This document shows positions 1 to 27,867 of a stretch of DNA of 64,000 nucleotides, piece by piece. Within the stretch, counting starts at the first letter, position 1, and each line of letters opens with the position of its first letter. Source of the DNA: Sulfurirhabdus autotrophica (GTDB taxonomy: Bacteria > Pseudomonadota > Gammaproteobacteria > Burkholderiales > SMCO01); assembly GCF_004346685.1 (NCBI RefSeq), contig NZ_SMCO01000002.1, positions 120,940 to 184,939 on the forward strand. Direction: 5' to 3'. Position numbers and translations under genes: made by a program. Below the pieces are notes generated by a model that was not told the origin of the DNA, did no database searches, and was given only the letters and a program-made list of their open reading frames with translations.

Positions 1-1972
1 AATCTTTATAGCGAAAATATTCCACATCGTGACGCCCATTGGAATCGAAGCCGTGAATCGCAAATGGATCACCGATCTTGTCCAAGGCGTCAGCCAATAA
101 CACCGTCGCTTCCCTTGCTAATTCCAGCACTGTGCTTTCGGAACCGAGTACGGCATCATTAGTGGATTCGGACAAATCAATCAGCAGCATCACTGAAAGA
201 TCGCGCACTTTGCGTACATTACGAATCATGATGCGCGGATCAGGCTGTTCACCCATACGCATTTCAATCATGGCGCGTACTGCGGCATTGATATCGATCT
301 CATCGCCATCTTCCTGCTTGCGCAGACGCTGTACACCCTGCGGCTGCATAGCTTCAATCAGGTATTTAAGCCGCGCAACGATAGGTTTGTGCTTGACCAC
401 AATATCGTCAATCATTTGCAGTTCACCGGGCTTAGCACGCTTTTCCAGCACCGTGCACCAGTCGGGACGGTCCAATTGCATCTGATAATCCCACTCCGGA
501 TAATGGTAGGGATCAGGTGGCGGCTCACGACCTTCCTGCTGGTTGATACTGGTAGTTTCCTCATCGCGAAAAAATTCGCTGTTGAGCACCCAAATTTCAT
601 TAGCATCATCACCCGCGCCAGGCACATCAATCGCGTTAATCATTTCCATCACGCTAACGTACTTGCGGATTTGCTGTGTGGTCACACCGGCAACAACTTG
701 CCCGGCTTCACGAATATCTTCGAACTCCCACATGTACTGATTGTCATCGCGGTAAAGAATATCAATCACATCATTAGACTGACTATAAATCACGCCCATG
801 CCCTGCATTTCTTCCGCAAGGCGAATACCCATTTCGCGTACCCATTCCGTCACATTTTGCTGCGCTTTGTTTTCACTGAACAGGCGATAGCCAAGCATTA
901 CCAAAGGGTGATTATCACGATAATCTTCGTCCAACAGAATGCGTGCCAATCGCGCCATCAATCCCACAGCACTATCACCAGTTTGCGGGGTGGCCGTATG
1001 AAATGACAACCATGTTTGCTTAAGTCCCGGAAATTGTGCTACTGCCAACCCTTCAATGCGTGCATCTTCAATTAACCCGATCAGTACAACTTGCAATGCG
1101 CTAAGCCCGGTGCTATCAAATTGCTCAGTGGTATATACCTGATGGCATGCCGCATGTGCTGCACTGGCTCGGTAAAGATCAATACCGGGTATGCGTACTT
1201 CTTCACCAGTAGAAGAATCAAATACGAAATCATCGAAAGCATCGGGTAAATGAATAATATAACCGTCAATTGAAGGTCGATAACCTTCGCGCTGCTCAAA
1301 GTCACCGCTGGTTGGCCGCATAAAGAAATCACGCCCCCACAAGGCGCGCATATACATACCAATGCGTCGCTGCACATCGATGAACAAGGTCCCCTTGCGT
1401 TCTTTTTGCAACACGCCGATAGACTCAGGACTTTCCAGGCTGAAATATTTAAGCTGTCCATCAAAATTGGTTTTATGGGCCTGTGCACCCCACAACGCCC
1501 AGCGCCTTAACCCGCCCAATGTAAGCTGACCAAGCAGCGTACTAAGATGGTCCAGCATCGGACGAATTCCGCGTGGCGCTTGCGCCAGCAGCGTATCCAG
1601 CAAATGCAAAAATCCGCGAAACAACTCAGGATCACCAAGGCGTGCAGCAGCTACAGGACTGGTAGCAAAAATGGCAGCAATCACTGATGCGCTGGTCTTG
1701 GAATACATTTTGATTGCTGCGGCAAGCAGATCGCTCACCGAGTCTTCACCTAGCTCGCGCGCAACTGCAGGTGCATTTTGAATAAATGTCACGACCAGAT
1801 CAGTACCACGACCTAACGATTTTAAACCGGTAGCACCTTGCAGATAATAGTTTTCCAGTCCACGTGGGCTGAACACGCGTGCTGCTTCACCCCAGGAGGC
1901 ACGTAACACTTCGCCTGCATGCTCCCCAAGTTCGTCCAGAATATCCTGATATTTTTCAAGTTCAACCGACAT
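1..1972 (-). CDS. cbbO: CbbO, von Willebrand factor A-domain partner of the CbbQ Rubisco activase. Partial: the C-terminal end runs past the window start.
   Basis: Minus-strand frame starting at the ATG at 1970-1972 stays open to position 1. It is not in the supplied ORF track, which appears to list only ATG-to-stop ORFs. My hand translation shows VWA-like sequence. It lies directly downstream of cbbQ in the cso locus. The plus-strand ORFs in the track here are antisense artefacts. Confidence 0.7.
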   Translation of the reverse strand, partial: MSVELEKYQDILDELGEHAGEVLRASWGEAARVFSPRGLENYYLQGATGLKSLGRGTDLVVTFIQNAPAVARELGEDSVSDLLAAAIKMYSKTSASVIAAIFATSPVAAARLGDPELFRGFLHLLDTLLAQAPRGIRPMLDHLSTLLGQLTLGGLRRWALWGAQAHKTNFDGQLKYFSLESPESIGVLQKERKGTLFIDVQRRIGMYMRALWGRDFFMRPTSGDFEQREGYRPSIDGYIIHLPDAFDDFVFDSSTGEEVRIPGIDLYRASAAHAACHQVYTTEQFDSTGLSALQVVLIGLIEDARIEGLAVAQFPGLKQTWLSFHTATPQTGDSAVGLMARLARILLDEDYRDNHPLVMLGYRLFSENKAQQNVTEWVREMGIRLAEEMQGMGVIYSQSNDVIDILYRDDNQYMWEFEDIREAGQVVAGVTTQQIRKYVSVMEMINAIDVPGAGDDANEIWVLNSEFFRDEETTSINQQEGREPPPDPYHYPEWDYQMQLDRPDWCTVLEKRAKPGELQMIDDIVVKHKPIVARLKYLIEAMQPQGVQRLRKQEDGDEIDINAAVRAMIEMRMGEQPDPRIMIRNVRKVRDLSVMLLIDLSESTNDAVLGSESTVLELAREATVLLADALDKIGDPFAIHGFDSNGRHDVEYFRYKD

Positions 1973-2096: not shown

Positions 2097-2900
2097 TCAG
2101 AAGAACGTGCTTACTGCTGCATCCAGCGCATCGCGCATATCAGGATCATCCGTAATCGGGCGAACCAGGGTCATGCGGCAAGCAGACATGGGATCCACAC
2201 CACTGGCAATCAAACTGCCCGCGTAGATCAACATACGAGTGGAAATCCCTTCGTCCAGGCCGTGTCCTTTCAAATTGCGAGCGCGCTCGGCGATCGATAC
2301 CAGCTTGCTGGCCACGTCTTGAGAAACCCTTGTCTCATGCGAGACAATTTCGGTTTCAATTTCATGGTCAGGGTAGTTGAAATCCAGTGCACCAAAACGC
2401 TGCTTAGTAGACTGTTTTAAGTCCTTCATCAGCGATTGGTAGCCTGGGTTATAGGAGATAACCAACTGAAAATCTGGGTGCGCCTGAATTAACTCGCCTT
2501 TCTTTTCGAGTGGCAGCACCCGGCGGGCATCAGTCAGTGGGTGAATTACAACGGTTGTATCCTGGCGTGCTTCGACCACCTCGTCCAGATAGCAGATGGC
2601 TCCGTGGCGCGCAGCAATGGCCAACGGACCATCTTGCCAGCGGGTTCCGGAAGCATCCAGCAGAAAACGGCCAACCAGGTCGGAGGCGGTCATATCTTCG
2701 TTACACGCTACGGTAATAAGCGGCTTGCCTAATTTCCAAGCCATGTATTCAACAAAGCGTGTTTTACCACAGCCGGTAGGGCCTTTCAGCATCATCGGCA
2801 TACGGACTGAGTAGGCGGCTTCATACAGCGCTACTTCATCTGTTACTGAGCGGTAGTAAGGTTGTTCTTTAACACTGTATTGGCTAATCACGTCATTCAT
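2097..2900 (-). CDS. cbbQ: CbbQ, MoxR/NorQ-type AAA+ ATPase (Rubisco activase subunit).
   Basis: Walker A motif GPTGCGKT and an AAA+ core of NirQ/NorQ/CbbQ type. The likely true start is the internal Met (MNDVISQY) at 2900, which has an AAGGGAA ribosome-binding site. The long ORF start at 2939 is the alternative. Confidence 0.85.
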
Positions 2901-3032
2901 GATGGTTCCCTTTAAAGTTGGCAGCAAAACTGTCGACAACTTGCAGCAGGGGCATCTTCAATGACGCCTCTCGCTACTGCTTACCCACTGCCGACTGCAT
3001 TTCGCAGTACATAATGATTTACAATCAAACTC

Positions 3033-3260
3033 TCAGTCTGGCCAGACACGGTCTGGGTGCAGCACGTTGGTTGAATTGGTTGAGCTAGCTGCAGGTTTTG
3101 TTGCTGCTACTTTTGTGGTTGGCTTGGCAGCGCTTACTGTTGCAGGTTTAGCTGCTGACTGAGCGTCAGACTTTTCCGCAATGGCAGGTGTCTTGGCTTG
3201 CTGCGCTTTAACCTGGCGTACACCTTGTGCAAGTTTGGATCCCATTTTTTTTACAGACAT
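3033..3260 (-). CDS. Small low-complexity Ala/Lys/Thr/Ser-rich protein, McdB-like candidate partner of the adjacent ParA ATPase.
   Basis: 75 aa with a basic, disordered-looking composition (AKPATVSAAKPTTKVAATKPAAS) and a Trp three residues from the C-terminus (RVWPD). It overlaps the stop of the upstream ParA-like gene by 10 nt. Its position is the one occupied by mcdB in alpha-carboxysome loci. Confidence 0.5.
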   Translation of the reverse strand: MSVKKMGSKLAQGVRQVKAQQAKTPAIAEKSDAQSAAKPATVSAAKPTTKVAATKPAASSTNSTNVLHPDRVWPD

Positions 3261-3886
3261 AAAACCTCCTCAATGATTGCTTCAATATCCGCCACAGCCT
3301 GCTGGCCACGCTTACCCATACCGTATACGCTCTGACCTTCTACTGCAGCACTGCGGTAAGCCGCGCGTCGCTGCATTCCGGCAACCAGCACCGGCACATC
3401 AAATTCCGCCACTGCTTCCCGCATATCCCTTGACAGGGCATTACGCGCTTCCAGTTGATTCAGTACCAGACAGGCCCGGAGATCAGGGTTGTACTGTCTG
3501 GCTTCATTTACTGCAACGGCCATATCCACACTGGCCCACAAATCAATCGGTGATGGCAACACCGGAATCAAGGCGAGGTGAGCAACGCGCAAAATCGCTA
3601 CTATGGCATCACCTTGTACTGTCGGAGGACAATCCACCACCACATAGCGATGTTTACGCGACAATTTGCTAAGCACACCGGCAGGATTACCACCCAGCTG
3701 AGCTACCCCCGGCAATCCAGAATTACCTCCGCCCATTCCCACCCACTGGGTAATTGAGCGTTGGGGATCGGCATCCACCAGATGAGTAGAACTGCGTAAT
3801 GCCAAACCCGCTGATAAATTCAGTGCCAGCGTCGTTTTACCGGTGCCGCCTTTCTGGTTAATCACTGCTATGATTCGGTTACTCAT
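3251..3886 (-). CDS. ParA/MinD-family ATPase, McdA-like (maintenance of carboxysome distribution).
   Basis: Deviant Walker A motif KGGTGKTT near the N-terminus (IAVINQKGGTGKTTLALNLS). 211 aa. Embedded in the cso locus between the shell/assembly genes and cbbQ. Confidence 0.7.
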   Translation of the reverse strand: MSNRIIAVINQKGGTGKTTLALNLSAGLALRSSTHLVDADPQRSITQWVGMGGGNSGLPGVAQLGGNPAGVLSKLSRKHRYVVVDCPPTVQGDAIVAILRVAHLALIPVLPSPIDLWASVDMAVAVNEARQYNPDLRACLVLNQLEARNALSRDMREAVAEFDVPVLVAGMQRRAAYRSAAVEGQSVYGMGKRGQQAVADIEAIIEEVLCL

Positions 3887-3948
3887 GTCCGCTCCATCAT
3901 GGTTTTCTGCCAGTTATGGTGGGGTCGTATCGCTGGATCACACCGCGT

Positions 3949-4227
3949 TTAATTCTTTGTTTTCGTCACCAATGCTTGCATATCGGCAATAAAAGTAGAA
4001 TTCATTTCACGCAATGCAGCCTGCCCTTCACCATCGATACTGATATTCGCGTAGGTTTTACCAAAACTCACGTCAGGATAGTAATCATCACGTTTCGATA
4101 ATTCTGCCAGCTCATCCAGGAACTGACGGGTTTCAGCATAACTGCCAAAATCAAAACGTTGATTAAACTGTGCAACGCGTTCCTTACTGGCTGTTGAACC
4201 AGCATTCACATCTTTAGATTCCGTCAT
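3949..4227 (-). CDS. Pterin-4a-carbinolamine dehydratase-like protein, candidate alpha-carboxysome Rubisco assembly factor (acRAF-like).
   Basis: 92 aa with a PCD-like core (DDYYPDVSFGKTYANISI) in which Tyr-Tyr replaces the catalytic His-His. It is translationally coupled to the ferritin-like gene (ATGA overlap at 4224-4227). cso loci carry a PCD-like gene at this position. Confidence 0.55.
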   Translation of the reverse strand: MTESKDVNAGSTASKERVAQFNQRFDFGSYAETRQFLDELAELSKRDDYYPDVSFGKTYANISIDGEGQAALREMNSTFIADMQALVTKTKN

Positions 4228-4673
4228 GATATGGCTCCTTTCTGAATTTCCATCAGCCCTCGATCCAGCTCACTCAAGTGACCCAGTTCGTCCTGCAAAA
4301 TTTCAGCAAACAGCGACTGCGTCTCGCTATCGCGTATCCGTGCACAGTAGTGCGACGCTTCTTCATACAAACGAATCGCCTCAATTTCCAGCACACGATT
4401 TATCTGCAACATTTCTTCAACGCTACGCCCAGTTCGCACTGGTGGTAGCTGGGTGGCATTAGAAGGAATACCTAGCACCAGCATTCTTTCCATCAGACGT
4501 TCAGCATGAACCAATTCCTCATTCACATCCTCACGCATACGCGCACTCATGTCAGCCATGCCCCACAAACCAACCAGCTTGGACTGCATCAGGAACTGTT
4601 GCACTGCAGCCAGTTCATGACTGAGAGCGCGCGTCAGATATCCGCTTAAACGTGGGTCGGAATACATAGCCAT
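4224..4673 (-). CDS. Ferritin/bacterioferritin-like domain protein associated with the cso locus.
   Basis: 149 aa, helical, ferritin-like with Glu/His-rich motifs (EELVHAERLMERM, QDELGHLSELDRG). The position is conserved in alpha-carboxysome operons. Confidence 0.6.
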   Translation of the reverse strand: MAMYSDPRLSGYLTRALSHELAAVQQFLMQSKLVGLWGMADMSARMREDVNEELVHAERLMERMLVLGIPSNATQLPPVRTGRSVEEMLQINRVLEIEAIRLYEEASHYCARIRDSETQSLFAEILQDELGHLSELDRGLMEIQKGAIS

Positions 4674-4699: not shown

Positions 4700-5026
4700 T
4701 TAGCTGAGATCACCTTCAATCATGCCCATACTGCCATCAGGTGTACTTGGCAGAATGTTCTCTACCTCGGAGTGCACGCGAGCAATAATGTGTGCTGCTA
4801 CCAGACCGTCACCGACGCGTTCGCACGCATCTGCTCCGGCACGTACCGCGGCGTTTACCGCGCCGGTTTCGCCGCGTACCAGTACGGTTACGTATCCACC
4901 ACCAACAAACTGACGACCTACCAGGCGAACTTCTGCCGCTTTGGTCATTGCGTCTGCTGCTTCAATCGCAGGTACCAATCCACGGGTTTCGATCATGCCT
5001 AATGCAACTCCGCTAACGTTTGCCAT
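4700..5026 (-). CDS. csoS1: Carboxysome shell BMC-H protein CsoS1 with a C-terminal extension (CsoS1B-like).
   Basis: [37 protein letters not shown] is a canonical BMC domain. It carries a roughly 12-aa C-terminal tail absent from its paralog. Confidence 0.9.
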
Positions 5027-5374
5027 TTTCAGTACTCCTTCAGGTTCAATTAATTACAAGTTTTCTTTATGCTGATGCGCTTGGCAGAATGTTCTCTACC
5101 TCGGAGTGCACGCGAGCAATAATGTGTGCTGCTACCAGACCGTCACCAACGCGTTCGCACGCATCTGCTCCGGCACGCACTGCTGCGTTAACCGCGCCAG
5201 TTTCGCCACGTACCAGTACAGTTACGTATCCACCACCAACAAACTGACGACCTACCAGGCGAACTTCTGCCGCTTTGGTCATTGCGTCTGCTGCTTCAAT
5301 CGCAGGTACCAATCCACGGGTTTCGATCATGCCCAATGCAATTCCGCTTACATTTGCCATTTTCAGTACTCCTT
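4746..5374. repeat. Tandem direct duplication of about 295 bp (4746-5040 and 5080-5374, over 90% identical) covering both csoS1 genes and their ribosome-binding site/leader.
   Basis: Direct comparison of the two stretches. The spurious plus-strand ORFs 4722-4913 and 5020-5247 in the track translate almost identically. Confidence 0.85.
5067..5360 (-). CDS. csoS1: Carboxysome shell BMC-H protein CsoS1.
   Basis: 97-aa BMC domain, near-identical to the neighbouring copy at both protein and DNA level. Confidence 0.9.
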
Positions 5375-5394: not shown

Positions 5395-5652
5395 TCACTT
5401 GCTGTCACCAGCGTCCCATGCATCAATAATTCCGCATATTGTCAGATCGGTCATTGTTGCCCTGTCACCTGTGGCGATTCGTGCTGCTGAACCACCTGCC
5501 GTTATCACCCATTTCCCCGGAGGTACGCCTACCGGGTCACATGCCACGCTGAGTTTTCCCTGAACATCTTCCAAAACTCTCAGTGAAGTATTCTGCAATC
5601 CCGGTACTCGACGCGTCGCTACCAGTTCCGATACCACGCGCATGATTTCCAT
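5395..5652 (-). CDS. csoS4B: Carboxysome vertex protein CsoS4B (EutN/CcmL family).
   Basis: EutN/CcmL-like sequence (MEIMRVVSELVATRRVPGL...). An internal Met start at 5652 abuts the csoS4A stop without overlap. The long-ORF start at 5685 is the alternative. Confidence 0.75.
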   Translation of the reverse strand: MEIMRVVSELVATRRVPGLQNTSLRVLEDVQGKLSVACDPVGVPPGKWVITAGGSAARIATGDRATMTDLTICGIIDAWDAGDSK

Positions 5653-5653
5653 A

Positions 5654-5905
5654 TCAACCTTCCGACCAGTGATCAATGATGCCAATGATGGTCAAATCAC
5701 TGGGGAAGTCTTTGCTACCTGCTGCTTCACGAGCTGCAGAAGAACCAACACAAATTACCCAGTCACCCGCGATACAGCCCACAGCATCCACAGCAACCTG
5801 GCGCGGCCCGCCTACTTTCTCTCTCACCACCAACAGCGGACGGTGTCCCAGATCTTTGATCCTGTTGGTCGAAACCAGCGTTTTTTCCACCTGACAAATC
5901 TTCAT
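5654..5905 (-). CDS. csoS4A: Carboxysome vertex protein CsoS4A (EutN/CcmL family).
   Basis: MKICQVEKTLVSTNRIKDL... is a typical CsoS4A N-terminus. 83 aa. Confidence 0.85.
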   Translation of the reverse strand: MKICQVEKTLVSTNRIKDLGHRPLLVVREKVGGPRQVAVDAVGCIAGDWVICVGSSAAREAAGSKDFPSDLTIIGIIDHWSEG

Positions 5906-5924: not shown

Positions 5925-7511
5925 TTATGCCGCGTCAACTTCAACCAGCTCAATCGGGCTGCCTGGTCGTTTATCCTGTACTGTCATTCCGCACACCAGC
6001 AAACCCTTTTTTGCCAGATCTGCATACCGTGCTTCAATTGCCTCTTTCACGCGCTGACAACGCTCCACTGTACGTTCACGGCAACCTGGCACCCTGTTGT
6101 CATAGCGAAAGTGAATAGCCACTGGAGCCGGCAGACCATGATTCACATTCAGCTTTGTGAAAATCTTGATGCCCACATCCATATCCGGTGCCCCTTCTTC
6201 TACAGTGTGCAGATGGGCAAAGTAAGCCAGATTACGCAACTGGAATTCTTCAAATCCATCACCTACACTGATGAATCTTTCTGCATGACCAATATCGGTA
6301 TACCGCCCACCCCAATTGCTGCATACATATTCAATCTGCGACAAGTTATTGATCAGCAGCGAAGTGATCAGTCTGCGCATTCCTTCATGTGGCTCTCCAC
6401 TACTAGCACCCCATCCGGTCGCTTCACTGGCTGCCTGGATCGCCTGATACACCTTAAGCCGGGCAGTATTCGCATCATCATTTACCGTGCTGCGATACAG
6501 TTCAATGTTGTCAACAAACCGGTGCAAATTCATTTCACCTGCGGCATCGGGTATATGTACCTTGATTGCATCAGTATCTGTATCAACGCCGATCAACAAT
6601 GTATCTACCGAAGCACCACAACAAAAACTGTTTTCAATCGCCTGGCGAAACGCGTTCAGACGTTTCAAACCCGCTTCTGCTGCTACGGTCACGTTACTGC
6701 AATGTGCAGCACAACCCTCGTGAGTCGGATCTGAACTACTCCAGTGATACACAGCCACTTTCAAGTAGCGCGTACCTGCATCTGCTGTTACCGGACGCCC
6801 CTCGCGAAAGCGCATCAATTCAGTTTCAATCCAGCGTTTAACATTAGCGTCTACGTCAAACATTGCACCGGCGTATGCTTTACGACTTCGTACTGCACCT
6901 TCCGGCAGGCGCAAGATATAGCGCACCAAACCTTTCAGTCGCCCATCCGAACACGGCGAGATATCTACCGCGTGATAACCGCTATCGAGAAAAAATGCTA
7001 TAGCGGCATCCGTATCCTTCTGCGGATTTTTTAGTTGCGCCTGCTCAGCTTTCTGGCGCAGTGTTTGCATGACGCACTCACCATACAAAGCGCGCATATC
7101 CAGATCAGCTATCCAGGCATCATCCAAAATCCTTGCTGGTAATTCAAAACCCAGCTGTTCACGAGCAATTACCTGAGCACGTTCAGTAAAATCAGCTTCA
7201 TGTTGCAAACCGGCAATGCGTTTAAGCACTTTAACGATTGCGTCAAAACTGCCTTTAATTGTCTGTTCATGTTCCAGCAGACGTTTGTTCTCTGCTTCGT
7301 TGGTCAACGGGTGACGACAAACTCGACCACCCCCTGTTGAGCAAGCAGGATTGGGCTCAACTAAGGTATTAAGAGCGATGCCTTGTGGTGCGAAAACCGG
7401 TTGAATAGGGCGCGCCTGCAGTACCCCACCAGCTGTACCTAACCCATAAGGGAGGCGACTAGCTGAAGGCTGCTGGTTTCTCATGCGCTCTGGTCGGTTT
7501 CTCGTATTCAT
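5925..7511 (-). CDS. csoSCA: Carboxysomal beta-carbonic anhydrase CsoSCA (CsoS3).
   Basis: 528 aa. It sits between csoS2 and csoS4A, and its size and sequence character match CsoSCA. Confidence 0.8.
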   Translation of the reverse strand: MNTRNRPERMRNQQPSASRLPYGLGTAGGVLQARPIQPVFAPQGIALNTLVEPNPACSTGGGRVCRHPLTNEAENKRLLEHEQTIKGSFDAIVKVLKRIAGLQHEADFTERAQVIAREQLGFELPARILDDAWIADLDMRALYGECVMQTLRQKAEQAQLKNPQKDTDAAIAFFLDSGYHAVDISPCSDGRLKGLVRYILRLPEGAVRSRKAYAGAMFDVDANVKRWIETELMRFREGRPVTADAGTRYLKVAVYHWSSSDPTHEGCAAHCSNVTVAAEAGLKRLNAFRQAIENSFCCGASVDTLLIGVDTDTDAIKVHIPDAAGEMNLHRFVDNIELYRSTVNDDANTARLKVYQAIQAASEATGWGASSGEPHEGMRRLITSLLINNLSQIEYVCSNWGGRYTDIGHAERFISVGDGFEEFQLRNLAYFAHLHTVEEGAPDMDVGIKIFTKLNVNHGLPAPVAIHFRYDNRVPGCRERTVERCQRVKEAIEARYADLAKKGLLVCGMTVQDKRPGSPIELVEVDAA

Positions 7512-7559: not shown

Positions 7560-9917
7560 TCAACCTCTGGCACCACCGGAGTAAGTTATGGCCGATCCTT
7601 TCGAATCATTACCACTACTTCCGGTAATTCGGCTTACCGGTAACTCTGGACGCTCACGATCTTTCAACTGTGAAGCACCGATTACCGCACCACGCTGCTC
7701 ACCCCTCATTGTGGGGTTACGGCGCGTTGAATTTCCTTCCGTGCCAGTTACACTTTCATTACGTCGCCATGCTGCACCCGTTATCGCAAAACCGCCTTCA
7801 CGACCATCACCTGTCAGTCGGCTACGTGCTTCCTCAACCAACTGAACCTGAGCCATGACTACGGGTGCCGTACTTTCCTGATGGCGGAACTCAGGGGTAC
7901 CAGACACCAGACCCGTTGCCAGATTAACCGGGCCAGTGATACGTCCGATTGCACCGTAAGCAGTGCCTGTGATGTTGCTGATGCTACTATCCTGGGCACT
8001 GCGAGCCGGGGTAGCGATGCTAAAATTTCCTTGCACTCTTTGTTCCTGCGGTGCAGGTGCTGCTTCGCGCGGTACATTTACCGGACGCTGTGTGAGCGGG
8101 TGCGGATTACTGTTTGCACCACGCTGAGACACACGCTGATTGGACCCGGAATAAGGAGTGCCGCTCAAAACCTGGCTTTCGCCACGCCCTGCACCTGTTA
8201 CCTTCCCACCTGATTCAACCCGGGCACCACTCAGAGACAAACTTGCCTGAGCCCCACGACTAGCCATCAAAGCCCGTGAAGCGGCCTGACGATCTGCATC
8301 GCAAAAAGAGGTATATTGATCAGGCCCGATATACTCTGTTCCAGAAATCGGCTGACAACCACCATACTCATCGCCTGTTACCTTACTGCTATGCTCAACT
8401 GGTGTACCGGATACCTGCTGCTCATGCCAGGTGCGCATTACACCAATTTTTTCCGGTGCTGGTGCCGGTTCGCGATTGCAAGCCTGATATTGAGCAAGGC
8501 CATCAGATTCAGTACCGGTCACACTTGCACAAGCACCACGATCACCACCTGTAACCATGCTGCCAGGAGCAACGTCTGTTCCGCTGATTTCGCGATTTTT
8601 AACCGTGCTCATCAAACTAACCTTGTGCGGCGCGCTGCTGCCATTACGACATGCACTGGTGTTCTGGTCCTGAGCGTATTGACTACCGGTAAGCTTACAG
8701 TTGCAGCTACCAGACTCGTCACCCGTTACTTTTGAGCTGCGGCCCACTTCTGTACCGCTCACGTTTAAACCAGCTCGGGTATTGGCTATACCCACTTTTG
8801 ATGGTGTCAGCGCTGGTTTGGTGCCACAGAACGATTCAAACTTGTCAGCACTCAGATACTCAGTACCGGTTACGTTTTTGCATGCACCAAATTCGCTACC
8901 TGTCATCTTTTCGCTACGATCGGTATCAATACCGCTGATGCGCTGGCCTCGGCTGGTATTGCTGATACTTACCTTAGCTGGTGCAGCCTCAGGTGTCGCA
9001 TCACACAACTGCCCATATTGCTCAGCACCAATATATTCAGTACCGGTAATCGCACGACAGCTGCCAGATTCAACACCGGTCACCTTGCTGATGCGCTCAA
9101 CCTGAGTACCGCTCACTGTGGTACCACTCAAAGTAGTACCAATTTCAACTTTGACAGGTGAAACCTGGGTACGTACACGCCCCGTAGGTCGGCAAGCAGG
9201 ATCATTGCCACGACCGTTCTCGCACATTTCTGCGCGGCGTGCTCGTGCAGCATCCCGGCCACTTAAACCCGCAGTTGCCCTTTGGTTTAATTTTCCGGAT
9301 TTAACTGCTTTCTTTCCCTGACTGGATAGTGCGCGGCGGCGCTCCTGACATAATTTGCGTACGGCAGAGGCAACCGAACCAACAACAGCCGTAGGCTCAT
9401 CATCTACAATCGCACATACTTCCTCTATTGCCTGCTCACGCTCAGCCTCTTCCGCCCTGTCTTTGCTTTTGCAACCACACCCTGACTTTTGATCATCCGA
9501 TCCAGCATTCGCGGTTAAAGATGCGGATGCTGACATGGTTGTCGCAGGTGCAGATGTACGAATACTTGATGCCGTTTTAGCTGAACCCAGCGCCGCTTTC
9601 CCACCCAGTGACATGGCTTCACGTCTCGCTCTGGATAATGACTTGCCAGAAGCATTCATCACTGAACCTGAGGTGGCAGCAGATGTTGTTGCAGACAATG
9701 AAGCTGCTGGCGCTGTCTGTGCCGGACGTGCAGTCTCAACGGTTGAAGTTATCGGTGCTGCTGTTGACATTGCTGGCCTGGTTGCTGGACGTGCAGGTGC
9801 GGATGGTTTTGCACCAATCGCGGTGCGTCCGTTCTGGGACAGCGCACGGCGCCTTTCCAGTGCAACAGCGCGTGACGAACGCGGAGTCGTTGTATTGTTT
9901 GCCATTGGATCGCTCAT
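7560..9917 (-). CDS. csoS2: Carboxysome scaffold protein CsoS2.
   Basis: 785 aa, intrinsically repetitive. N-terminal RRRALS-type repeats are followed by many VSGT/ISGT...KVTG(D/V)E(S/Y)G(S/G)C repeats with paired cysteines. A GGAGGA ribosome-binding site precedes the ATG. Confidence 0.85.
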   Translation of the reverse strand: MSDPMANNTTTPRSSRAVALERRRALSQNGRTAIGAKPSAPARPATRPAMSTAAPITSTVETARPAQTAPAASLSATTSAATSGSVMNASGKSLSRARREAMSLGGKAALGSAKTASSIRTSAPATTMSASASLTANAGSDDQKSGCGCKSKDRAEEAEREQAIEEVCAIVDDEPTAVVGSVASAVRKLCQERRRALSSQGKKAVKSGKLNQRATAGLSGRDAARARRAEMCENGRGNDPACRPTGRVRTQVSPVKVEIGTTLSGTTVSGTQVERISKVTGVESGSCRAITGTEYIGAEQYGQLCDATPEAAPAKVSISNTSRGQRISGIDTDRSEKMTGSEFGACKNVTGTEYLSADKFESFCGTKPALTPSKVGIANTRAGLNVSGTEVGRSSKVTGDESGSCNCKLTGSQYAQDQNTSACRNGSSAPHKVSLMSTVKNREISGTDVAPGSMVTGGDRGACASVTGTESDGLAQYQACNREPAPAPEKIGVMRTWHEQQVSGTPVEHSSKVTGDEYGGCQPISGTEYIGPDQYTSFCDADRQAASRALMASRGAQASLSLSGARVESGGKVTGAGRGESQVLSGTPYSGSNQRVSQRGANSNPHPLTQRPVNVPREAAPAPQEQRVQGNFSIATPARSAQDSSISNITGTAYGAIGRITGPVNLATGLVSGTPEFRHQESTAPVVMAQVQLVEEARSRLTGDGREGGFAITGAAWRRNESVTGTEGNSTRRNPTMRGEQRGAVIGASQLKDRERPELPVSRITGSSGNDSKGSAITYSGGARG

Positions 9918-10109: not shown

Positions 10110-10442
10110 TTACTTTCCACGGAACACAACAAATGATGTGCCCTGGCTTTGCGAGTAATTGTCATATCCGATCAATCGCACATGGTTACCAGGGTGCGCA
10201 CGGTGACAGGCTTCCAGCTCGGCTATAATCACATCAACTGACTGCTCGCCGAACATTGGCAACTTCCACATATACCAGTAGTAAGCACTAGCCCGTGCAG
10301 GTTCAACGTGCTCTATCCCCGGATTCCATCCCTGACTTACCAGATAAGCAATCTGACGACGGATTTTTTCCGGGGTCATTGGAGGCAAATACGAAAATGT
10401 TTCGTATTTAGGTGTGGATTTGAAATCTTGAATATCAGCCAT
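10110..10442 (-). CDS. cbbS: Rubisco small subunit.
   Basis: 110 aa ([48 protein letters not shown]...), immediately downstream of cbbL. Confidence 0.95.
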
Positions 10443-10531: not shown

Positions 10532-11953
10532 TTAGCGGTTAACCACGTCCAGCTTGTCCACGGTATCGAACTCGAACTTGATCTCTTTCCATGTTTCCAT
10601 AGCGATCTTCAATTCCGGGCTATCCTTGGCTGCATTGGTAAGAATCTCTTTACCTTCACGTTCCAGTTCACGACCTTCGTTACGCGCTTCAACACATGCT
10701 TCCAGCGCAACACGGTTAGCAGCCGCACCTGCAGCGTTACCCCATGGGTGACCTAAAGTACCGCCACCGAATTGCAACACTGAATCATCACCAAAGATGT
10801 TTACCAGTGCCGGCATGTGCCATACGTGAATACCACCAGAAGCGACCGGGAATACACCTGGCATGGAACCCCAATCCTGGTCAAACATAATGCCGCGTGA
10901 ACGGTCTTCAGGAATAAATGACTCGCGCATCAAATCAATCCAGCCCAGCGTTGCTTCACGGTCACCTTCCAATTTACCAACAACGGTACCTGAGTGCAGG
11001 TGATCACCACCGGACAGACGCAGAATCTTGGTCAAGACGCGGAAGTGAATACCGTGGTGCGGGTTACGATCCAGCACGGCATGCATAGCGCGGTGAATGT
11101 GCAACAACATACCGTTCTTGCGACACCAGTTCGCCAGACTGGTATTAGCGGTAAAGCCACCCGTAATGTAATCGTGCATGATAATTGGAGCGCCGATTTC
11201 CTTGGCAAATTCAGCACGTTCAATCATGTCTTCATAAGTTGGCGCCGTTACGTTCAGGTAGTGACCTTTACGCTCGCCAGTTTCTGCCTGAGCAGTCAAC
11301 GTTGCATCCTGCACGAACAGGAAGCGATCACGCCAGCGCATGAATGGCTGACTGTTGATGTTCTCGTCGTCCTTGGTGAAATCCAGACCACCACGCAAAC
11401 ATTCGTATACAGCACGACCGTAGTTTTTAGCAGACAAACCGAGTTTTGGCTTGATGGTACAACCCAACATCGGACGGCCATACTTGTTCATCTTGTCGCG
11501 TTCAACCTGAATACCGTGAGGAGGACCACCGCAGGTCTTCACGTAGTGCAGAGGGAAGCGCACGTCTTCAAGACGCAATGCACGAATTGCTTTAAATCCA
11601 AACACGTTACCCACCAGAGAGGTAAACACGTTAACCACAGAACCTTCTTCAAAAAGGTCGATCGGATAAGCAACAAAGGCATAGAAGCAAGTATCATCGC
11701 CTGGCACGTCTTCAATGCGATAAGCGCGTCCTTTGTAGTAATCCATGTCTGTCAAAAGATCGGTCCAAACTGTGGTCCAGGTACCGGTTGAAGACTCGGC
11801 AGCAACTGCAGCAGCAGCTTCTTCACGGTCTACGCCAGCTTGCGGGGTGATCTTAAAGCAGGCCAGGATGTCCGAATCCAATGGTGCGTACTCTGGCATC
11901 CAGTAGGTCTGTCGATATTCCTTAACACCTGCCTCATACTTTTTTGCGGCCAT
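10532..11953 (-). CDS. cbbL: Rubisco large subunit, form IA.
   Basis: 473 aa with the hallmark [24 protein letters not shown] motif, the active-site lysine region and a C-terminal WKEIKFEF tail. Confidence 0.97.
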
Positions 11954-12238: not shown

Positions 12239-13213
12239 ATGCCTATACACCACGCAACGCTGCACCAACTGAAGATTTTCGATGCTGTCGCCAGGCACAT
12301 GAGCTTTGCTCGTGCCGCAGAAGAACTGCACCTGACACCACCAGCACTATCGATTCAGGTCAAGCAATTGGCGGAGGCTATCGGGCAACCACTGTTCGAA
12401 CAGATTGGCAAAAAAATATCGCTCACCGCCGCGGGTCAAGTTTCATGGTCTACCTGCCGGGATGTACTGAGTCGTCTGGATCAACTTGCCCAGGAATTGG
12501 CCTCTCTTCAGGGTCTGGAGAAGGGCAACCTGAAACTGGCTACTCTTGCTACCGCCAAATACTTTATCCCACGGTTGTTAGGGGAGTTCTGTATAAAACA
12601 CCCCGGTGTTGACACTGCCTTGTTTATGGGCAATCGTGAAGCACTACTGGAAAGGCTCGCGCGCAATCAGGACGACCTCTACATTCTGGGCCAACCTCCG
12701 GAACATATGAATGTTATTACGGAACCTTTTGCTGATAATTTTCTGGTCGTAGTTGCCGCCCCAAACCACCCATTAGCGAATGAAAAAAAAATTGATCCAT
12801 CTCGTTTACGAGAAGAGCCATTTATCCTTCGGGAACCAGGATCAGGCACACGCCTTTCTACCGAAAAGTTTTTTGAGCAACATGGCGTGACACTTAAAGT
12901 GCGCATGGAATTAGGAAGCAACGAAGCGGTGAAACAAGTAGCTGCAGGTGGTTTGGGCATAGCGGTACTATCTTCAAGCGCTTTACGCTCCGAGCTTGCA
13001 AATGAGGAGCTTGTGATACTGGACGTCAAGGGTTTCCCGCTGGAACGCAAATGGTATGTGGTTTACCCGATGGGAAAACATCTGACCCCTGCCTCCAGGG
13101 AATTCATGGCATATCTATTTGCTGCTCCACCCACACACCAACTTGACCATAACCAGCTTCATGCAATTTCTGCCAAGCCTGAACACAAGAAAAAACGGCC
13201 GACACCCAAGTGA
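12239..13213 (+). CDS. cbbR: LysR-type transcriptional regulator CbbR.
   Basis: N-terminal LysR helix-turn-helix (LHQLKIFDAVARHMSFARAAEELHLTPPALSIQVKQLAE). Divergent from cbbL. Confidence 0.85.
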   Translation: MPIHHATLHQLKIFDAVARHMSFARAAEELHLTPPALSIQVKQLAEAIGQPLFEQIGKKISLTAAGQVSWSTCRDVLSRLDQLAQELASLQGLEKGNLKLATLATAKYFIPRLLGEFCIKHPGVDTALFMGNREALLERLARNQDDLYILGQPPEHMNVITEPFADNFLVVVAAPNHPLANEKKIDPSRLREEPFILREPGSGTRLSTEKFFEQHGVTLKVRMELGSNEAVKQVAAGGLGIAVLSSSALRSELANEELVILDVKGFPLERKWYVVYPMGKHLTPASREFMAYLFAAPPTHQLDHNQLHAISAKPEHKKKRPTPK

Positions 13214-13452
13214 AGATATATTTAGCATGCAAGATTACTAATCCATCCATTAAGCCTTGCCAGCTAAAGCGTATGTCTTTTGGAATGCTTTACGATTTGA
13301 GGGTAATTCAATCCGGCCATATAGCCAGATTGAAACCAGCTTGATGCGCATTTATTCAATGCGAAATATTGATTCTGCGTGCCCGGTAATTCAGTCAGGC
13401 ACGCCAGAAAATTGAAACCACAATTCATCTTTGACAAGTACTAACTCATCCA

Positions 13453-20432: not shown

Positions 20433-23400
20433 TTATTCAATTTTATTTTTAATAAAATCCATAAATTCACCCAGCGGTAAAGGTTTACTAAACAAAAAAC
20501 CCTGGAAAGCCTGACAACCACGCAACTCAAGAAATTGACACTGCGCTTCATTTTCAACGCCTTCGGCAATCACGTCCAGCCCTAGTGTTTCTGTCATGGC
20601 AATAATTGTCTGCACAATAGTGGCATCGTTAGGGTCGCTGACAATGTCCCGTACAAATGACTGATCAATTTTGATTTGACTCAACGGCAAGCGTTTCAAA
20701 TACTGCAGGGAAGAATAACCTGTTCCAAAATCATCCATGGAAAAACTCACCCCAAGCAATTCTATTTGGTGCATCTTGCTGATGGTTTCCTCAACATTTT
20801 TAAGCATGGCACTTTCAGTCAACTCCAGTTTCAAAAGGGTGGGATTTGCTCCTGTCTCCTGCAGCACGCGCTGTACCTGCCAGACAAAATCAGCCTCATG
20901 AAATTGTTTGGCACTGACATTTACCGCCAGTGTCAGGCTTTTGGCTATCGCATCGTTTTGCCAGTTTGACAGTTGCGCACAAGCTGTTTGAAGCACCCAA
21001 AGTCCAATCGGGATGATGAGGCCGGTTTCTTCGGAAAGGGGGATGAATTGTGCTGGTGAAACCAGACCATACTGAGGATGGTCCCAGCGCAACAATACTT
21101 CTGCTCCCAAGGGGCGACGCAGATTATCCACCTGAATCTGGTAATACAACCGAAATTGCTGCTTGTTTAATGCAAGCCGTAATTCATCTTCCAGTTCCGC
21201 ACGTGTATCGATAGCACGCTGCATGACTGAATCATAGAAACGAATTGCATTGCGACCGCTAATTTTGGCTTGATACATTGCTGTATCCGCATACCTGAGA
21301 AGATCATCGGGAATTTCCTGACGACCACTGAATAGCACAATACCAATGCTCGAAGTGGTATAGCACCTACGTTCATTGAGCATATAAGATTCGCTCAGCG
21401 TGGTGCGTATTTTTTCGGCGACCATTTCTGCTTGCGCTGCTGCTTCATCCACATCTGCACTGAGGGTTTCCAGTACCACGAGAAATTCATCGCCCCCCAG
21501 ACGTGCCACCGTATCACCTTCACGTACGCAAGATTGCACCCTTCTGGCTACATCGATAAGTAGCAGATCACCAATCGCGTGTCCCTTCGTATCGTTGAGG
21601 GTTTTAAAGTTATCCAGGTCGATAAACAGTACTGCCCCATACTGCCCATTGCGAGAACTTGCCGAAAGCGCCTGATTCAAGCGATCCATTAACAGCCGAC
21701 GGTTAGGCAATTGCGTCAGCACATCATAAAATGCCATCTGATGTATTTTGTCTTCGGCATGCTTGAGGTCGGTAACATCGTAAAACCACCCTAATATTGC
21801 CGGCACATTTTCATATTCCAGTTTAAAATAAGAAGCCAGCACCCACGTTTTTTTTGTTTCTGAAACTTTCAATTCCACCAGATTGTTAGTTACCGATTTC
21901 CCTTGCTCAAGTTGTTGTAGAGCATCTTCAAAATCCTGGGGATCCGCGTAATACTGTTTGGGGTCTGTTCCAATCACCTGATCACGTTCAAGCGAGATTA
22001 AATCGGCATATTGCTGGTTTGCAAACAATACGTTATGCCCACCAGAAGCAGCAATTCTTACTGCTATGGGACTGGTTTCAAGCATAAAGCGAAATCTGGC
22101 TCCATTTTTTTGGATTAATTCCTCTGCATGTTTGCGTTCTGTCATGTCATAAAGAATCACCAGACTGGACGTCCCTATCCATGACATACTAAAGCTAATG
22201 TCACGTACCGTGCCATCCTTACACATGACCCGGTATTCCATCGGATCAAACCCACCCCCCTTCTGCTGCATTTTTTCTACCGCCGCATGCCATTCCTGGG
22301 CAACCTGTTGCCGATAAATGGGGTCGGGATAGGCCCGTGGCCACCACGCTTCCAGCGTTGGAATATCTTCCAACGTATATCCAAAGGTATCAACAAATTT
22401 TCTGTTCAATAACGTAATTTTCAAATTTTCGTCATTCATGGCCATTGCCACTGGCGACGATTCGATAATCGCGCGAAAATTTTCCTCACTTGCACGCACC
22501 GCTGCTTCTGCAAGCTTACGTTCGGTAATATCGTTGGCCGATGGTACGAGGAACGCAATCTTGCCTGTCTTGTCACGCACAGGCTGCAAGGAAAAATCAA
22601 TAGAAACCAAATGGTTTCCGGTGCCGCGCACCTGAAAATCATAGCGCGAGACCTCACCCTGAGTTGCGAGTTTAATTGCGGTACGAAGTTTTTGTTGTGT
22701 TTCCTCCAAGCCAGAAAACCAGTAGGTCTGGTCTAAAGGTTTACCCATCACATCAGATAACGCCACCCCTCCCATATCCAATGCCGACTGATTGACCTTA
22801 ATCAGCGTTCCATCCAACTCCATCAGCCCTACGAACGTCGTTGGGCCAAAGCCATCAATCATATTACTCAGCCGCTCTTCACTCTTTCGCAGCTCGGCTT
22901 CAGCAATGTGTCGACCGATGGCGATGCTTGCGATATAAGTGGCGGTATCAATAAATTGCAAATGCTCCTGCCGTGGCAACCCTGGTTGACGATAATACAT
23001 TGCGAAGGTGCCGAGTACCCTCCGTTCCGTATCGAGTATTGGCGTTGACCAACAGGCACGCAACCCATGCGGGAGCGCCGCCTCTTTGTAAGCATCCCAA
23101 AGTGGATCAGTGGCAATATCTTCTACAAACACTGCTTCCTTAAGATAAGCTGCAGTACCACATGACCCTGCGTTCGGGCCTATCGGCTGCCCGTCTACTG
23201 CGGCCACAAATTCAGCTGGCAAACTGGGTGCTGCGCCATGCCGTACATGAACACCATCTTCATCCATCAGCAAAATAGAACCTAACATTCCAGGGGACTG
23301 AGCTTCAATAAGCTGCACTAACGAAGTCAGCGTTTCCGGCAATGCAACGCCCACGGCGATCATCTCTAGCACTTGTTTCTGTCCGTCAAGCAGCGTCTCT

Positions 23401-24230
23401 ACCTGCTTACGCTCAGTAATATCATGCACAATGCCGAGAATCTGGGTGACTTGCCCATATTCATCAAAAACAAAAGGCGTTTCACGACTTACCAGCCAAT
23501 GCCATGCCCCGCCTTTATCCCGAATACGATAATCTATCTCGCGTATGTCACCGCTGGAGGCTTCTTTCCATGCTTCATGGGATGCAATAATACGAGCCAA
23601 ATCTTCTGGATGAAAAATCTGGAGCACATTACTGCCCATGGCCTGTGTCTCTTCAACCGTATAGCCATAGGCAGTAAGCCAATGCTTGTTCAGATAAACA
23701 TTTCGCTGCTCCACCAGATCGTAGATGTAGACAGTGCCCGGCTGAGTATCCAGAATCCGCTCAAGCATAAATTTTTGATCTTGTAGTGCCAACTCAAGTT
23801 TTTTGCGCTGACTGATGTCACGAACACTGGCTATTATGGCAGGTTCGCCATTGTGAACAATTGGATGTGAGAAGATTTCTACCGGCAGTTCACTGCCGTT
23901 TTTGTGTCGGTGCCGCCATTCAAACTTATTCCCCGATTTCAAGGATTCGCTGAGGTGGACATGTACCTCCTTGACCAAATCTTTGGCAGCCAAATCAACT
24001 GCATTCATATTTCTGAAATCATCAAGGCTGTAGCCATAACGGTTTACTGCGGTAGTATTCGCATCCAGAATTTGCCCCTTGAGGCTAAGGATAAAAACAG
24101 CATCAGGGTTTGCATCGAATATCGCCCGATAATCTATGCCATGATAGTCAGAGGTTTTTACATCCATATCAGGTTTATTAAGTATCAGTTCGTTATCGAG
24201 AAACTGCACTGTCATACTGGATAGAAGCAT
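20433..24230 (-). CDS. Multi-PAS/GAF-GGDEF-EAL signalling protein, 1265 aa.
   Basis: Repeated PAS-like blocks (ITERK... repeats), RLGGDEFLVVL, EVLLRW, and DDFGTGYSSLQYL. Confidence 0.9.
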   Translation of the reverse strand: MLLSSMTVQFLDNELILNKPDMDVKTSDYHGIDYRAIFDANPDAVFILSLKGQILDANTTAVNRYGYSLDDFRNMNAVDLAAKDLVKEVHVHLSESLKSGNKFEWRHRHKNGSELPVEIFSHPIVHNGEPAIIASVRDISQRKKLELALQDQKFMLERILDTQPGTVYIYDLVEQRNVYLNKHWLTAYGYTVEETQAMGSNVLQIFHPEDLARIIASHEAWKEASSGDIREIDYRIRDKGGAWHWLVSRETPFVFDEYGQVTQILGIVHDITERKQVETLLDGQKQVLEMIAVGVALPETLTSLVQLIEAQSPGMLGSILLMDEDGVHVRHGAAPSLPAEFVAAVDGQPIGPNAGSCGTAAYLKEAVFVEDIATDPLWDAYKEAALPHGLRACWSTPILDTERRVLGTFAMYYRQPGLPRQEHLQFIDTATYIASIAIGRHIAEAELRKSEERLSNMIDGFGPTTFVGLMELDGTLIKVNQSALDMGGVALSDVMGKPLDQTYWFSGLEETQQKLRTAIKLATQGEVSRYDFQVRGTGNHLVSIDFSLQPVRDKTGKIAFLVPSANDITERKLAEAAVRASEENFRAIIESSPVAMAMNDENLKITLLNRKFVDTFGYTLEDIPTLEAWWPRAYPDPIYRQQVAQEWHAAVEKMQQKGGGFDPMEYRVMCKDGTVRDISFSMSWIGTSSLVILYDMTERKHAEELIQKNGARFRFMLETSPIAVRIAASGGHNVLFANQQYADLISLERDQVIGTDPKQYYADPQDFEDALQQLEQGKSVTNNLVELKVSETKKTWVLASYFKLEYENVPAILGWFYDVTDLKHAEDKIHQMAFYDVLTQLPNRRLLMDRLNQALSASSRNGQYGAVLFIDLDNFKTLNDTKGHAIGDLLLIDVARRVQSCVREGDTVARLGGDEFLVVLETLSADVDEAAAQAEMVAEKIRTTLSESYMLNERRCYTTSSIGIVLFSGRQEIPDDLLRYADTAMYQAKISGRNAIRFYDSVMQRAIDTRAELEDELRLALNKQQFRLYYQIQVDNLRRPLGAEVLLRWDHPQYGLVSPAQFIPLSEETGLIIPIGLWVLQTACAQLSNWQNDAIAKSLTLAVNVSAKQFHEADFVWQVQRVLQETGANPTLLKLELTESAMLKNVEETISKMHQIELLGVSFSMDDFGTGYSSLQYLKRLPLSQIKIDQSFVRDIVSDPNDATIVQTIIAMTETLGLDVIAEGVENEAQCQFLELRGCQAFQGFLFSKPLPLGEFMDFIKNKIE

Positions 24231-27300: not shown

Positions 27301-27867
27301 CGGCAATTTCATATAACTCGGTGGTGGTGTTAAGGCCTTCCGCAATAAATTCGCAAACGTTAGCTTAGGAACGGCCTTCTTGTCGCCGGGGATAGGTAAC
27401 CCGCCTTCCGCAACATGGAAAGAACCCTTGGTAGTGCGACGGTCGCTTGCTGGATTATGCAACACCCCATTTCGAATACGGTAGCTACTGACATACTCAC
27501 TGCTGAACACATCTTTATCAATGGGTAGTGAAAGCTCTCTGGATACGCCGTGTCGATCGAGAATCAAAGTATCTTCAGGCAACCGGGGGATATCTCCACC
27601 TGCAACATCAGAGAGATAGCTATTCAGAAAATCCTGAATACGCTGATCCGGCGGACACAGATAGCCGCTCAACAAACGGGATTTTTCGCGATAACTTCTT
27701 AACAGATCTTGTGCAACGGCCATGAAATCGCCATCACTTCCCTGCAAGCAGGCGGGCTGGCCAGAGGATTCAAGTTTCAGATTAATGTAGAGCTGCAGGC
27801 GTTCGCGCGTTTCTTGTACATCTTCCGGGCTTCCATTGAGCCCAAGAAATTGATTCAAATCCTTCAT
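24400..27867 (-). CDS. Large cytoplasmic protein of unknown function, 1155 aa. Speculatively a PPi-dependent phosphoenolpyruvate carboxykinase, based on size class only.
   Basis: Single uninterrupted ORF with a good ribosome-binding site and no transmembrane segment or signal peptide. It contains a GGGKSE P-loop-like segment. The family assignment is not secure. Confidence 0.55.
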   Translation of the reverse strand: MKDLNQFLGLNGSPEDVQETRERLQLYINLKLESSGQPACLQGSDGDFMAVAQDLLRSYREKSRLLSGYLCPPDQRIQDFLNSYLSDVAGGDIPRLPEDTLILDRHGVSRELSLPIDKDVFSSEYVSSYRIRNGVLHNPASDRRTTKGSFHVAEGGLPIPGDKKAVPKLTFANLLRKALTPPPSYMKLPFTSGQPHEASMFVSLLLRPVICPEIPGSESEKNMEIRFFAPGSLVSNLDFVESIFGNGGNPYLSSNDAGLDADHWSGHSGCVILAPHLTRFTKKELGLPAWDKATPRQQVDGMCWKDESERYNDGAAFKITARDERGVIVTLLADNYYGYCKKEVKTQISYATNLFGLAEEEHAGGALAFPRRNHGEEFGVDSHTRAPGYDFDDMVAQYGELMTLQPEGYGVDKQFPDVIYVPQDLRMDLAGQTISWMKSGVKQTIKLRPGKIYMQPNGYKIEMQKHPGAPSWRLVGTDAEGVFCHKPCTVSGGGKSEISKSLNDAVIYGPLFVADLDKDLDQVEAIFQRHYGDRFKPGFEREDRDASRKLLSSERSLGSVIKVLTPSPSYTDAFNNWLESVPDRILALVFIIKRMYSPDWGDSWRQRLSVDFVNGQPGHELKLGERKLVGSYLRMGFEENGAWRVFKMRQDFIAAEKVQKEDDITASVVVPAEVLSNVSPKSADASVKLVSNCEYRLFQRPDEAVHRGLDRQTELDIAQRDNFIANFEPLKGEALSEIMEDVVGFGQYTEPMRTILREASESDEYVVSSAHPRIVDGKPSKNPRYLQLRPDLSHPVRRYVAEVGARLSRRLPLEVAVIEPVNAVLVGRRNNPAEPGIRPLAVYNPIHYQELPELFMDFICSLTGKSPSTTGAGSEGALTKGPFNALRPTVDLNNALVSFILTGYSGFSTAAGYIGSKFRVDHDVSLLVPEIWSRLSAQDRDPHFLIENGYMEKVADIQYEGRSVQASRLGYRITERFVHGYLGKIFDAPMSVFGESILRPETQDLAVFVDGVENIVEAQQKVGASYLEDGSIEDACPPIKALLHIMANGSYEGKDVHDPAIRAMFTREALLASDWYLERLETKQARDVTLWQRHIHNLEAFVSRPSHQDMVIRLEIHDRLMRAKARLEKVKTGAYLQSLRGTIGADPLRPTRAAS

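Follow-up and report, generated by a model that had tools for sequence, protein, structure and literature searches.

A probable alpha-McdAB carboxysome-positioning pair inside the cso operon of Sulfurirhabdus autotrophica

What is the role of a ParA-type ATPase gene and a very short reading frame that lie together within a carboxysome operon? The question is raised by a locus of Sulfurirhabdus autotrophica, which belongs to the Sulfuricellaceae (order Nitrosomonadales, betaproteobacteria). The analysed stretch of DNA, 64 kb long and hereafter called the window, carries a complete alpha-carboxysome (cso) operon on the minus strand of its first 12 kb (Table 1). An earlier note on this DNA had described a 211-aa ParA/MinD ATPase with a KGGTGKTT Walker A motif overlapping a 75-aa ORF, had placed the two genes between the assembly-factor genes and cbbQO, and had read them as an McdA/McdB pair. 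Alpha-McdAB systems inside cso operons were described in 2021 from about 250 proteobacterial genomes (MacCready et al.; PMC8359340), so the pairing as such is not new to the field; the pair in the window is an additional, un-named member.

The gene arrangement is as it had been described. Both genes are on the minus strand, overlap by 10 nt, and are flanked by acRAF and the ferritin-like gene on one side and by cbbQ and a cbbO-like ORF on the other. The latter is a 657-aa open frame with the start MSVELEKYQ; its N-terminal part gave no Pfam or NCBIfam match, because the VWA domain falls outside the window, and it was identified solely through its similarity to NorD in the PDB. A terminator/promoter scan detected no terminator-like site in the gaps on either side of mcdAB (62 and 93 nt), and only chance-level sites inside coding regions. 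The terminator-free gaps between acRAF and mcdA and between mcdB and cbbQ agree with a transcript shared with the cso genes and support it weakly; mcdAB is probably co-transcribed with the cso operon.

Table 1. Features of the cso locus and of the candidate mcdAB pair (positions in the window)
Feature	Position	Strand	Evidence or remark
cbbO-like ORF (NorD/CbbO family), cut by window edge	2-1972	-	NorD chains in PDB, E 5e-21
cbbQ (AAA+ Rubisco activase subunit), directly downstream of mcdB	2097-2939	-	Pfam CbbQ_C 2.5e-34, AAA_5 3e-32
mcdB, 75-aa probable Type 1 alpha-McdB adaptor, stop codon 3033-3035 included	3033-3260	-	
McdB C-terminal motif LHPDRVWPD, residues 67-75, putative carboxysome-docking peptide	3036-3062	-	W73 invariant
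McdB N-terminal basic region, residues 1-21, MSVKKMGSKLAQGVRQVKAQQ, putative McdA-binding peptide	3198-3260	-	
Translational-coupling junction	3251-3271	-	SD GAGGAGG 3265-3271, mcdB ATG 3258-3260, mcdA stop TAA 3251-3253
mcdA, 211-aa ParA/MinD-family ATPase, probable alpha-McdA type	3251-3886	-	
McdA deviant Walker A box KGGTGKTT, residues 12-19, signature lysine K12	3830-3853	-	direct reading; invariant in the ParA alignment
acRAF (pterin-dehydratase-like Rubisco assembly factor), directly upstream of mcdA	3949-4227	-	PDB 4LOW, E 2.3e-12
Ferritin-like gene	4224-4673	-	
csoS1, two copies	5067-5360 and 4700-5026	-	BMC domain
csoS4B	5395-5685	-	
csoS4A	5654-5905	-	
csoSCA	5925-7511	-	TIGR02701, 738 bits
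csoS2	7560-9917	-	NCBIfam CsoS2 models
cbbS	10110-10442	-	
cbbL	10532-11953	-	

An alpha-McdA is defined as a ParA protein whose Walker A, A' and B boxes are of the deviant type and whose gene lies in or near the cso operon (PMC8359340). In addition to the Walker A box of Table 1, the ATPase of the window has a Walker A' box, LVDADPQ (D38 and D40), and a Walker B box, VVVDCPP (D85), both invariant in our ParA alignment and conserved across the ParAs compared; its gene is flanked by acRAF and by mcdB/cbbQ, is on the same strand as the cso genes and lies where the definition places it. The protein scores 188.6 bits against the NCBIfam equivalog model NF041546 ParA_partition (cutoff 180), matches Pfam AAA_31 and CbiA, and has a GRAVY value of +0.17. 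It is identical to WP_124948352.1 of S. autotrophica, which is named "ParA family partition ATPase". The solved structure nearest to it by sequence is that of the plasmid partition ATPase ParF of TP228 (PDB 4DZZ, E 5e-17), and for this reason the ATPase alone does not discriminate between functions.

The similarity to ParF, the best match among solved structures, leads to another reading of the locus. The two genes could form a ParF/ParG-like module for the partition of plasmid or chromosomal DNA that happens to lie in the cso operon, with the 75-aa product as a centromere-binding protein whose flexible N-terminal tail stimulates the ATPase. The NCBIfam name of the ATPase points in the same direction; ParF, of the type Ib ParF/ParG system, is also a small ParA (about 206 aa) that is similar over its full length, and its small partner is likewise encoded directly downstream. 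ParG-type partners are small too, at about 76 aa, and have a disordered basic N-terminus. Against this reading stands the location of the genes within a carbon-fixation operon with conserved synteny. A search of positions 2850-4350 revealed no centromere-like arrays of iterated or inverted repeats, only scattered two-copy matches of 13-21 nt at chance level, unlike what a partition module would have. The small partner is the more informative half of the pair and is considered next.

Alpha-McdB is encoded by a small CDS immediately after mcdA; its N-terminus is conserved and charged, V(I)WPD is invariant at its C-terminus, its hydrophobicity is low, its composition is biased toward A/P/K/S/T, and it is intrinsically disordered and 51-169 aa long (PMC8359340). 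The C-terminal motif was later refined to R(V/I)WPD (Basalla et al., 2024; PMC11321042). The mcdB product of the window, MSVKKMGSKLAQGVRQVKAQQAKT...NVLHPDRVWPD (full sequence: MSVKKMGSKLAQGVRQVKAQQAKTPAIAEKSDAQSAAKPATVSAAKPTTKVAATKPAASSTNSTNVLHPDRVWPD), has 75 aa, within the published range; its relatives measure 57-140 aa among the loci listed. With a composition of A15 K10 S8 V7 T7 P6, A+P+K+S+T account for 61% of the residues, which bears out the previous description of the protein as Ala/Lys/Thr/Pro-rich and ending in RVWPD. The net charge is +8, W73 is the sole aromatic residue, five residues are Gln, the GRAVY value is -0.53, and the first 23 aa contain six K/R and no D/E. Judged by sequence, the protein agrees with Type 1 alpha-McdB in every published criterion.

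A disorder prediction for the 75-aa protein had been suggested in the earlier note as a check. Disorder-promoting residues make up 65% of McdB, and its charge-hydropathy value of 0.441 lies marginally on the disordered side of the boundary at 0.452. AF2 modelling with a 27-sequence alignment gave a mean pLDDT of 57.7 and a pTM of 0.11, with no fold; the monomer model shows one 6-residue helix (residues 15-20, pLDDT about 60). McdB is predicted to be disordered, without a coiled coil or a Q-rich centre. Unlike ParG, then, the partner has no folded DNA-binding domain in the prediction, and the Pfam and NCBIfam scans of McdB, ParG and ribbon-helix-helix models included, returned no match in either library; both results argue against a centromere-binding protein. 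The same empty scans are not evidence against the gene itself, because neither library holds an McdB model.

A second question is whether the 75-aa ORF is a gene at all. Its product is short and of low complexity and belongs to no curated family, and the ORF contains an internal 17-nt direct repeat (3090-3106 and 3141-3157), features that would also be seen in a spurious, untranslated frame in low-complexity DNA after an orphan ParA. The ORF had moreover been thought to have no detectable homology and to escape similarity searches, and this part of the earlier description has to be corrected. With E<=0.01 as threshold, 121 homologs came up in a sequence search (best 5e-33), nearly all at 100% query coverage, from sources that include Gallionellaceae, Sulfuriferula, Sulfuricella and Acidithiobacillus. 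An alignment of 27 database homologs shows invariant residues at the N-terminus (M1, S2, G7, S8, L10, A11, G13, V14 and R15) and at the C-terminus (P69, R71, W73, P74 and D75), with a diverging middle that is free to vary in both length and sequence; such a pattern is hard to reconcile with an untranslated frame. Across seven close relatives, in alignable conserved blocks outside the mcdA overlap, many synonymous changes were counted and the pN/pS ratio is 0.30 (pooled pS 0.61, pN 0.18), which indicates purifying selection on the McdB protein.

The junction of the two genes also argues for translation. A strong Shine-Dalgarno sequence, GAGGAGG, lies inside the mcdA codons I-E-E-V, 4 nt upstream of the mcdB ATG, and in 22 of 24 loci (among the loci listed) mcdB begins before mcdA ends, the shared stretch being 4 or 10 nt, which indicates conserved translational coupling. 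In H. neapolitanus the homologous protein is functional and has been obtained in purified form (PMC8359340). Conservation and selection on McdB thus exclude a spurious ORF, to which we assign a practically negligible probability; the WPD-ending frames found at the related loci described below, in beta- and gammaproteobacteria alike, point the same way. The protein is identical to WP_124948351.1 of S. autotrophica. The view that the small ORF needs explicit annotation is therefore right as to its name, which is lacking (the record is labelled "hypothetical protein"), and superseded as to the gene call, which already exists.

To compare the two ends of the protein we anchored 25 sequences on their termini: 23 McdBs encoded at the loci described below (among the loci listed), the window McdB and the McdB of Halothiobacillus neapolitanus c2 (Hn McdB). 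A K-L dipeptide is present in 25/25, Hn McdB included. The position six residues after this Lys is basic in 21 of the 25 (20 Arg and the Lys of Hn McdB); the others have two His and two Ala, and the two Ala come from McdBs that were anchored on an earlier KL. At the C-terminus R, W, P and D are found in all 25 sequences, including Hn McdB (...THPRRVWPD).

Next, the co-occurrence of the ATPase and its partner was examined with the ParA alignment, which was scanned against one genome per species and yielded at least 80 loci. The ParAs fall into McdA-like proteins with 47-86% identity to the window McdA (24 loci, among the loci listed) and other ParAs with no more than 40% identity (56 loci). Directly downstream of the McdA-like ParAs a WPD-ending ORF was found in 23/23 testable loci, the remaining one (L012) being cut off by the contig end, whereas downstream of the other ParAs it was found in 0/56 (Fisher p 2e-20, among the loci listed). 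The positive loci belong to beta- and gammaproteobacteria, namely Sulfuriferula, Gallionella, Ferrovum, Thiobacillus, Burkholderiaceae, Thioalkalivibrio, Thiomicrorhabdus, Hydrogenovibrio, Thiomicrospira, Chromatiaceae and Spongiibacteraceae. Genes for cso proteins lie within 6 kb in 14 of the 24 related loci (among the loci listed), while in Thiomicrorhabdus, Hydrogenovibrio and Thiomicrospira the mcdAB-type pair is away from the cso genes, one of the published arrangements (PMC8359340). We also defined clade-specific residues in this analysis as positions conserved at >=90% in the WPD-partnered ParAs and at <=20% in the others; all 11 (R31, S119, Q144, A150, M155, R173, A175, E183, G191, G194 and I205) are present in the window McdA. 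In the literature, alpha-McdAs share about 53% pairwise identity and have three regions, drawn in Figure 5 of the original description, that are not found in classical ParAs (PMC8359340).

These results bear directly on the partition reading. The putative cargo-binding motif RVWPD is specific to carboxysome systems, unlike ParF/ParG, and as a docking motif it does not occur downstream of any of the 56 generic ParA/ParF-like loci (among the loci listed). The ParF/ParG-like partition module was rejected on the repeat search, which found no arrays, and on the structure prediction, which found no folded domain; we regard it as very improbable. Published sequence criteria (PMC8359340, PMC11321042, PMC12139897) and the independent co-occurrence test both support the McdA/McdB reading of the earlier note, and we conclude, at a probability of roughly 0.9, that these two genes, placed inside the cso operon, encode the alpha-McdAB system by which S. 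autotrophica positions its carboxysomes.

The closest known relative is the alpha-McdAB system of H. neapolitanus c2. [quoted passage not shown] For this McdA, ATP-dependent dimerisation, non-specific DNA binding and nucleoid gradients were established by biochemistry and imaging (PMC13001409). Hn McdB binds carboxysomes with its C-terminus and McdA with its N-terminus, and carboxysome distribution requires it (PMC8359340, PMC11321042, PMC12139897). McdA binding requires its first 20 residues, and these also suffice for it; among them K7 is critical, with contributions from K13 and K17, and AF3 predicts an N-terminal helix of 17 residues (Byrne et al., 2025; PMC12139897). When Hn McdB displaces McdA from DNA, it does not stimulate the McdA ATPase (Azaldegui et al., 2026; PMC13001409).

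An alignment with this protein had also been proposed as a check on the pair. The Hn McdB sequence (96 aa) was taken from the machine-read supplement of PMC11321042, with an OCR 'O' at residue 80 taken as Q; K7, K13, K17 and W94 of the recovered sequence are at their published positions. BLASTP aligned the window McdB with Hn McdB at 36% identity (E 4e-6). Both proteins share the HP-x-RVWPD end (THPRRVWPD in Hn, LHPDRVWPD in the window) and the N-terminal K-L-x4-[KR], and anchoring on K-L places K9, R15 and W73 of the window opposite K7, K13 and W94 of Hn McdB. In the window McdB the position of Hn K17 is taken by A19 and not by a basic residue, with K18 beside it. There are further differences: the window protein is shorter (75 vs 96 aa), its first 25 aa have a net charge of +6 vs -1 in Hn McdB, the linker cannot be aligned beyond its composition, and the short helix of the AF2 monomer model (residues 15-20) differs from the 17-residue AF3 helix. 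The hosts differ as well, a Sulfuricellaceae betaproteobacterium here and a gammaproteobacterium in the case of H. neapolitanus.

The beta-McdAB system of Synechococcus elongatus PCC 7942 (PMC6328274, PMC7182216) is a more remote parallel. It too consists of a nucleoid ParA-type ATPase and a small adaptor; as in the window McdB, the N-terminus of the adaptor is basic and a tryptophan at its C-terminus is invariant. With 75 aa, few Gln and no long helix, the window McdB nevertheless falls outside the criteria for cyanobacterial beta-McdB, and its McdA has the signature lysine that Type 1 beta-McdA lacks.

All binding and positioning activities of the window pair we infer by orthology with H. 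neapolitanus. McdA would bind ATP, dimerise via its signature lysine and coat the nucleoid non-specifically. McdB would act as a monomeric disordered tether made up of two short linear motifs and a variable low-complexity linker: its C-terminal motif with W73 would dock on the carboxysome, and its basic N-terminal peptide (K9, R15 and K18) would bind the McdA dimer and cause its release from DNA. Because a carboxysome coated with McdB would deplete McdA locally, it would be drawn up the surrounding McdA gradient in the manner of a Brownian ratchet (cf. PMC8359340, PMC12139897, PMC13001409). The expected outcome is that carboxysomes are spaced apart, that polar aggregation is prevented and that inheritance is ensured.

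It is also conceivable that the main role of McdB is intrinsic to the carboxysome, as a shell-associated condensate or as an assembly or permeability factor, with the McdA interaction being secondary. Orphan alpha-McdBs without McdA exist and a second McdB paralog is present in 12% of genomes; all McdB types form condensates, and the McdB of S. elongatus has an unexplained role that is independent of positioning (PMC8359340, PMC11321042). The basic motif for McdA binding at the N-terminus, absent from orphan (Type 2) McdBs (PMC8359340), is however present in the window McdB, whose synthesis is translationally coupled to that of McdA. In the six frames of the 64-kb window mcdB is the only real ORF ending in [VI]WPD, and no second (orphan, Type 2) McdB with this ending was found there, a 15-codon chance stretch at 13308-13355 aside. 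A mainly carboxysome-intrinsic role is in our estimation unlikely by a wide measure, and a positioning-independent role of McdB would be an addition to positioning, not an alternative to it.

The comparison of the two ends invites one further, tentative suggestion, which we consider doubtful at present: that alpha-McdB is merely two short linear motifs (K-L-x4-R and HP-x-R-[VI]-W-P-D) joined by a freely evolving spacer, with its synthesis locked to that of McdA by the conserved stop/start overlap and its SD within conserved I-E-E-V codons of McdA. If this is true, how firmly carboxysomes are held to the nucleoid would depend on the length of the spacer and on the coupled ratio of McdA to McdB, not on a fold. 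The 75-aa protein of Sulfurirhabdus would then represent a natural tether of almost minimal size, one that might help to engineer the positioning of carboxysomes in heterologous hosts.

For specialists the pair is an ordinary one, and it leaves the understanding of the carboxysome-positioning mechanism unchanged. Its main value is for annotation, since the public record has a "ParA family partition ATPase" next to a "hypothetical protein" and neither Pfam nor NCBIfam has a model for McdB; names are also lacking for the homologs from Gallionellaceae, Sulfuriferula, Ferrovum and Acidithiobacillus. The alignment of 27 homologs and the end-anchored comparison (K-L-x4-R; HPxR[VI]WPD) could seed a family model. 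Naming the two genes mcdA and mcdB assigns them a function in carboxysome inheritance and avoids mistaking the ATPase for a plasmid or chromosome partition gene.

The Shine-Dalgarno sequence and start codon of mcdB lie within the final mcdA codons (I-E-E-V-L-C-L*), so this DNA is dual-coding: it specifies both the conserved C-terminus of McdA and the M-S-V with which McdB begins. When the 24 loci with a ParA 47-86% identical to the McdA of the window were examined (from the range L001-L029 of the genomic ParA loci), we found the mcdA stop/mcdB start overlap in 22 of them. Its length is 10 nt among the loci of the Sulfuricellaceae/Gallionellaceae/Ferrovum group; in most of the remaining loci, which are gammaproteobacterial or belong to the Thiobacillus/Burkholderiaceae group, it measures 4 nt (ATGA).

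Features located in the window
Feature	Position	Strand	Remarks
17-nt direct repeat, mcdB linker	3090-3106 and 3141-3157		88% identical, 51 nt apart; repeat search
mcdA/mcdB junction (mcdB Shine-Dalgarno and start codon, mcdA stop)	3251-3271	-	
csoS1 (BMC-H), two tandem copies	4700-5026 and 5067-5360	-	sequence reading
LysR-family regulator	12239-13213	+	divergent from cbbL
Large PAS/GAF/GGDEF/EAL signalling protein	20433-24230		
1155-aa ORF	24400-27867	-	adjoins the signalling protein
Two adjoining tRNA genes	32848-32994	-	Rfam RF00005, 47.6 and 52.3 bits

The two csoS1 paralogs differ only by V7I over the first 93 residues, and the downstream copy is longer by a C-terminal tail of 14 residues; judging from these sequences, the tandem pair looks like the product of a recent duplication or gene conversion. 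Presumably, the LysR-family regulator is cbbR, which controls the cso/cbb operon. The 1155-aa ORF had no match in the Pfam or NCBIfam scans.

Within mcdB, the direct repeat encodes a recurring peptide, SAAKP(A/T)T. This suggests that the variable McdB linker grows and shrinks via short-repeat slippage. At the C-terminus, some of the McdBs whose genes are not located near cso genes (loci L005, L011, L017, and L021) end in R-C-WPD, R-R-WPD, or R-T-WPD. The residue before the Trp thus varies more than the published R(V/I)WPD consensus (PMC11321042) allows, while R and WPD are invariant.
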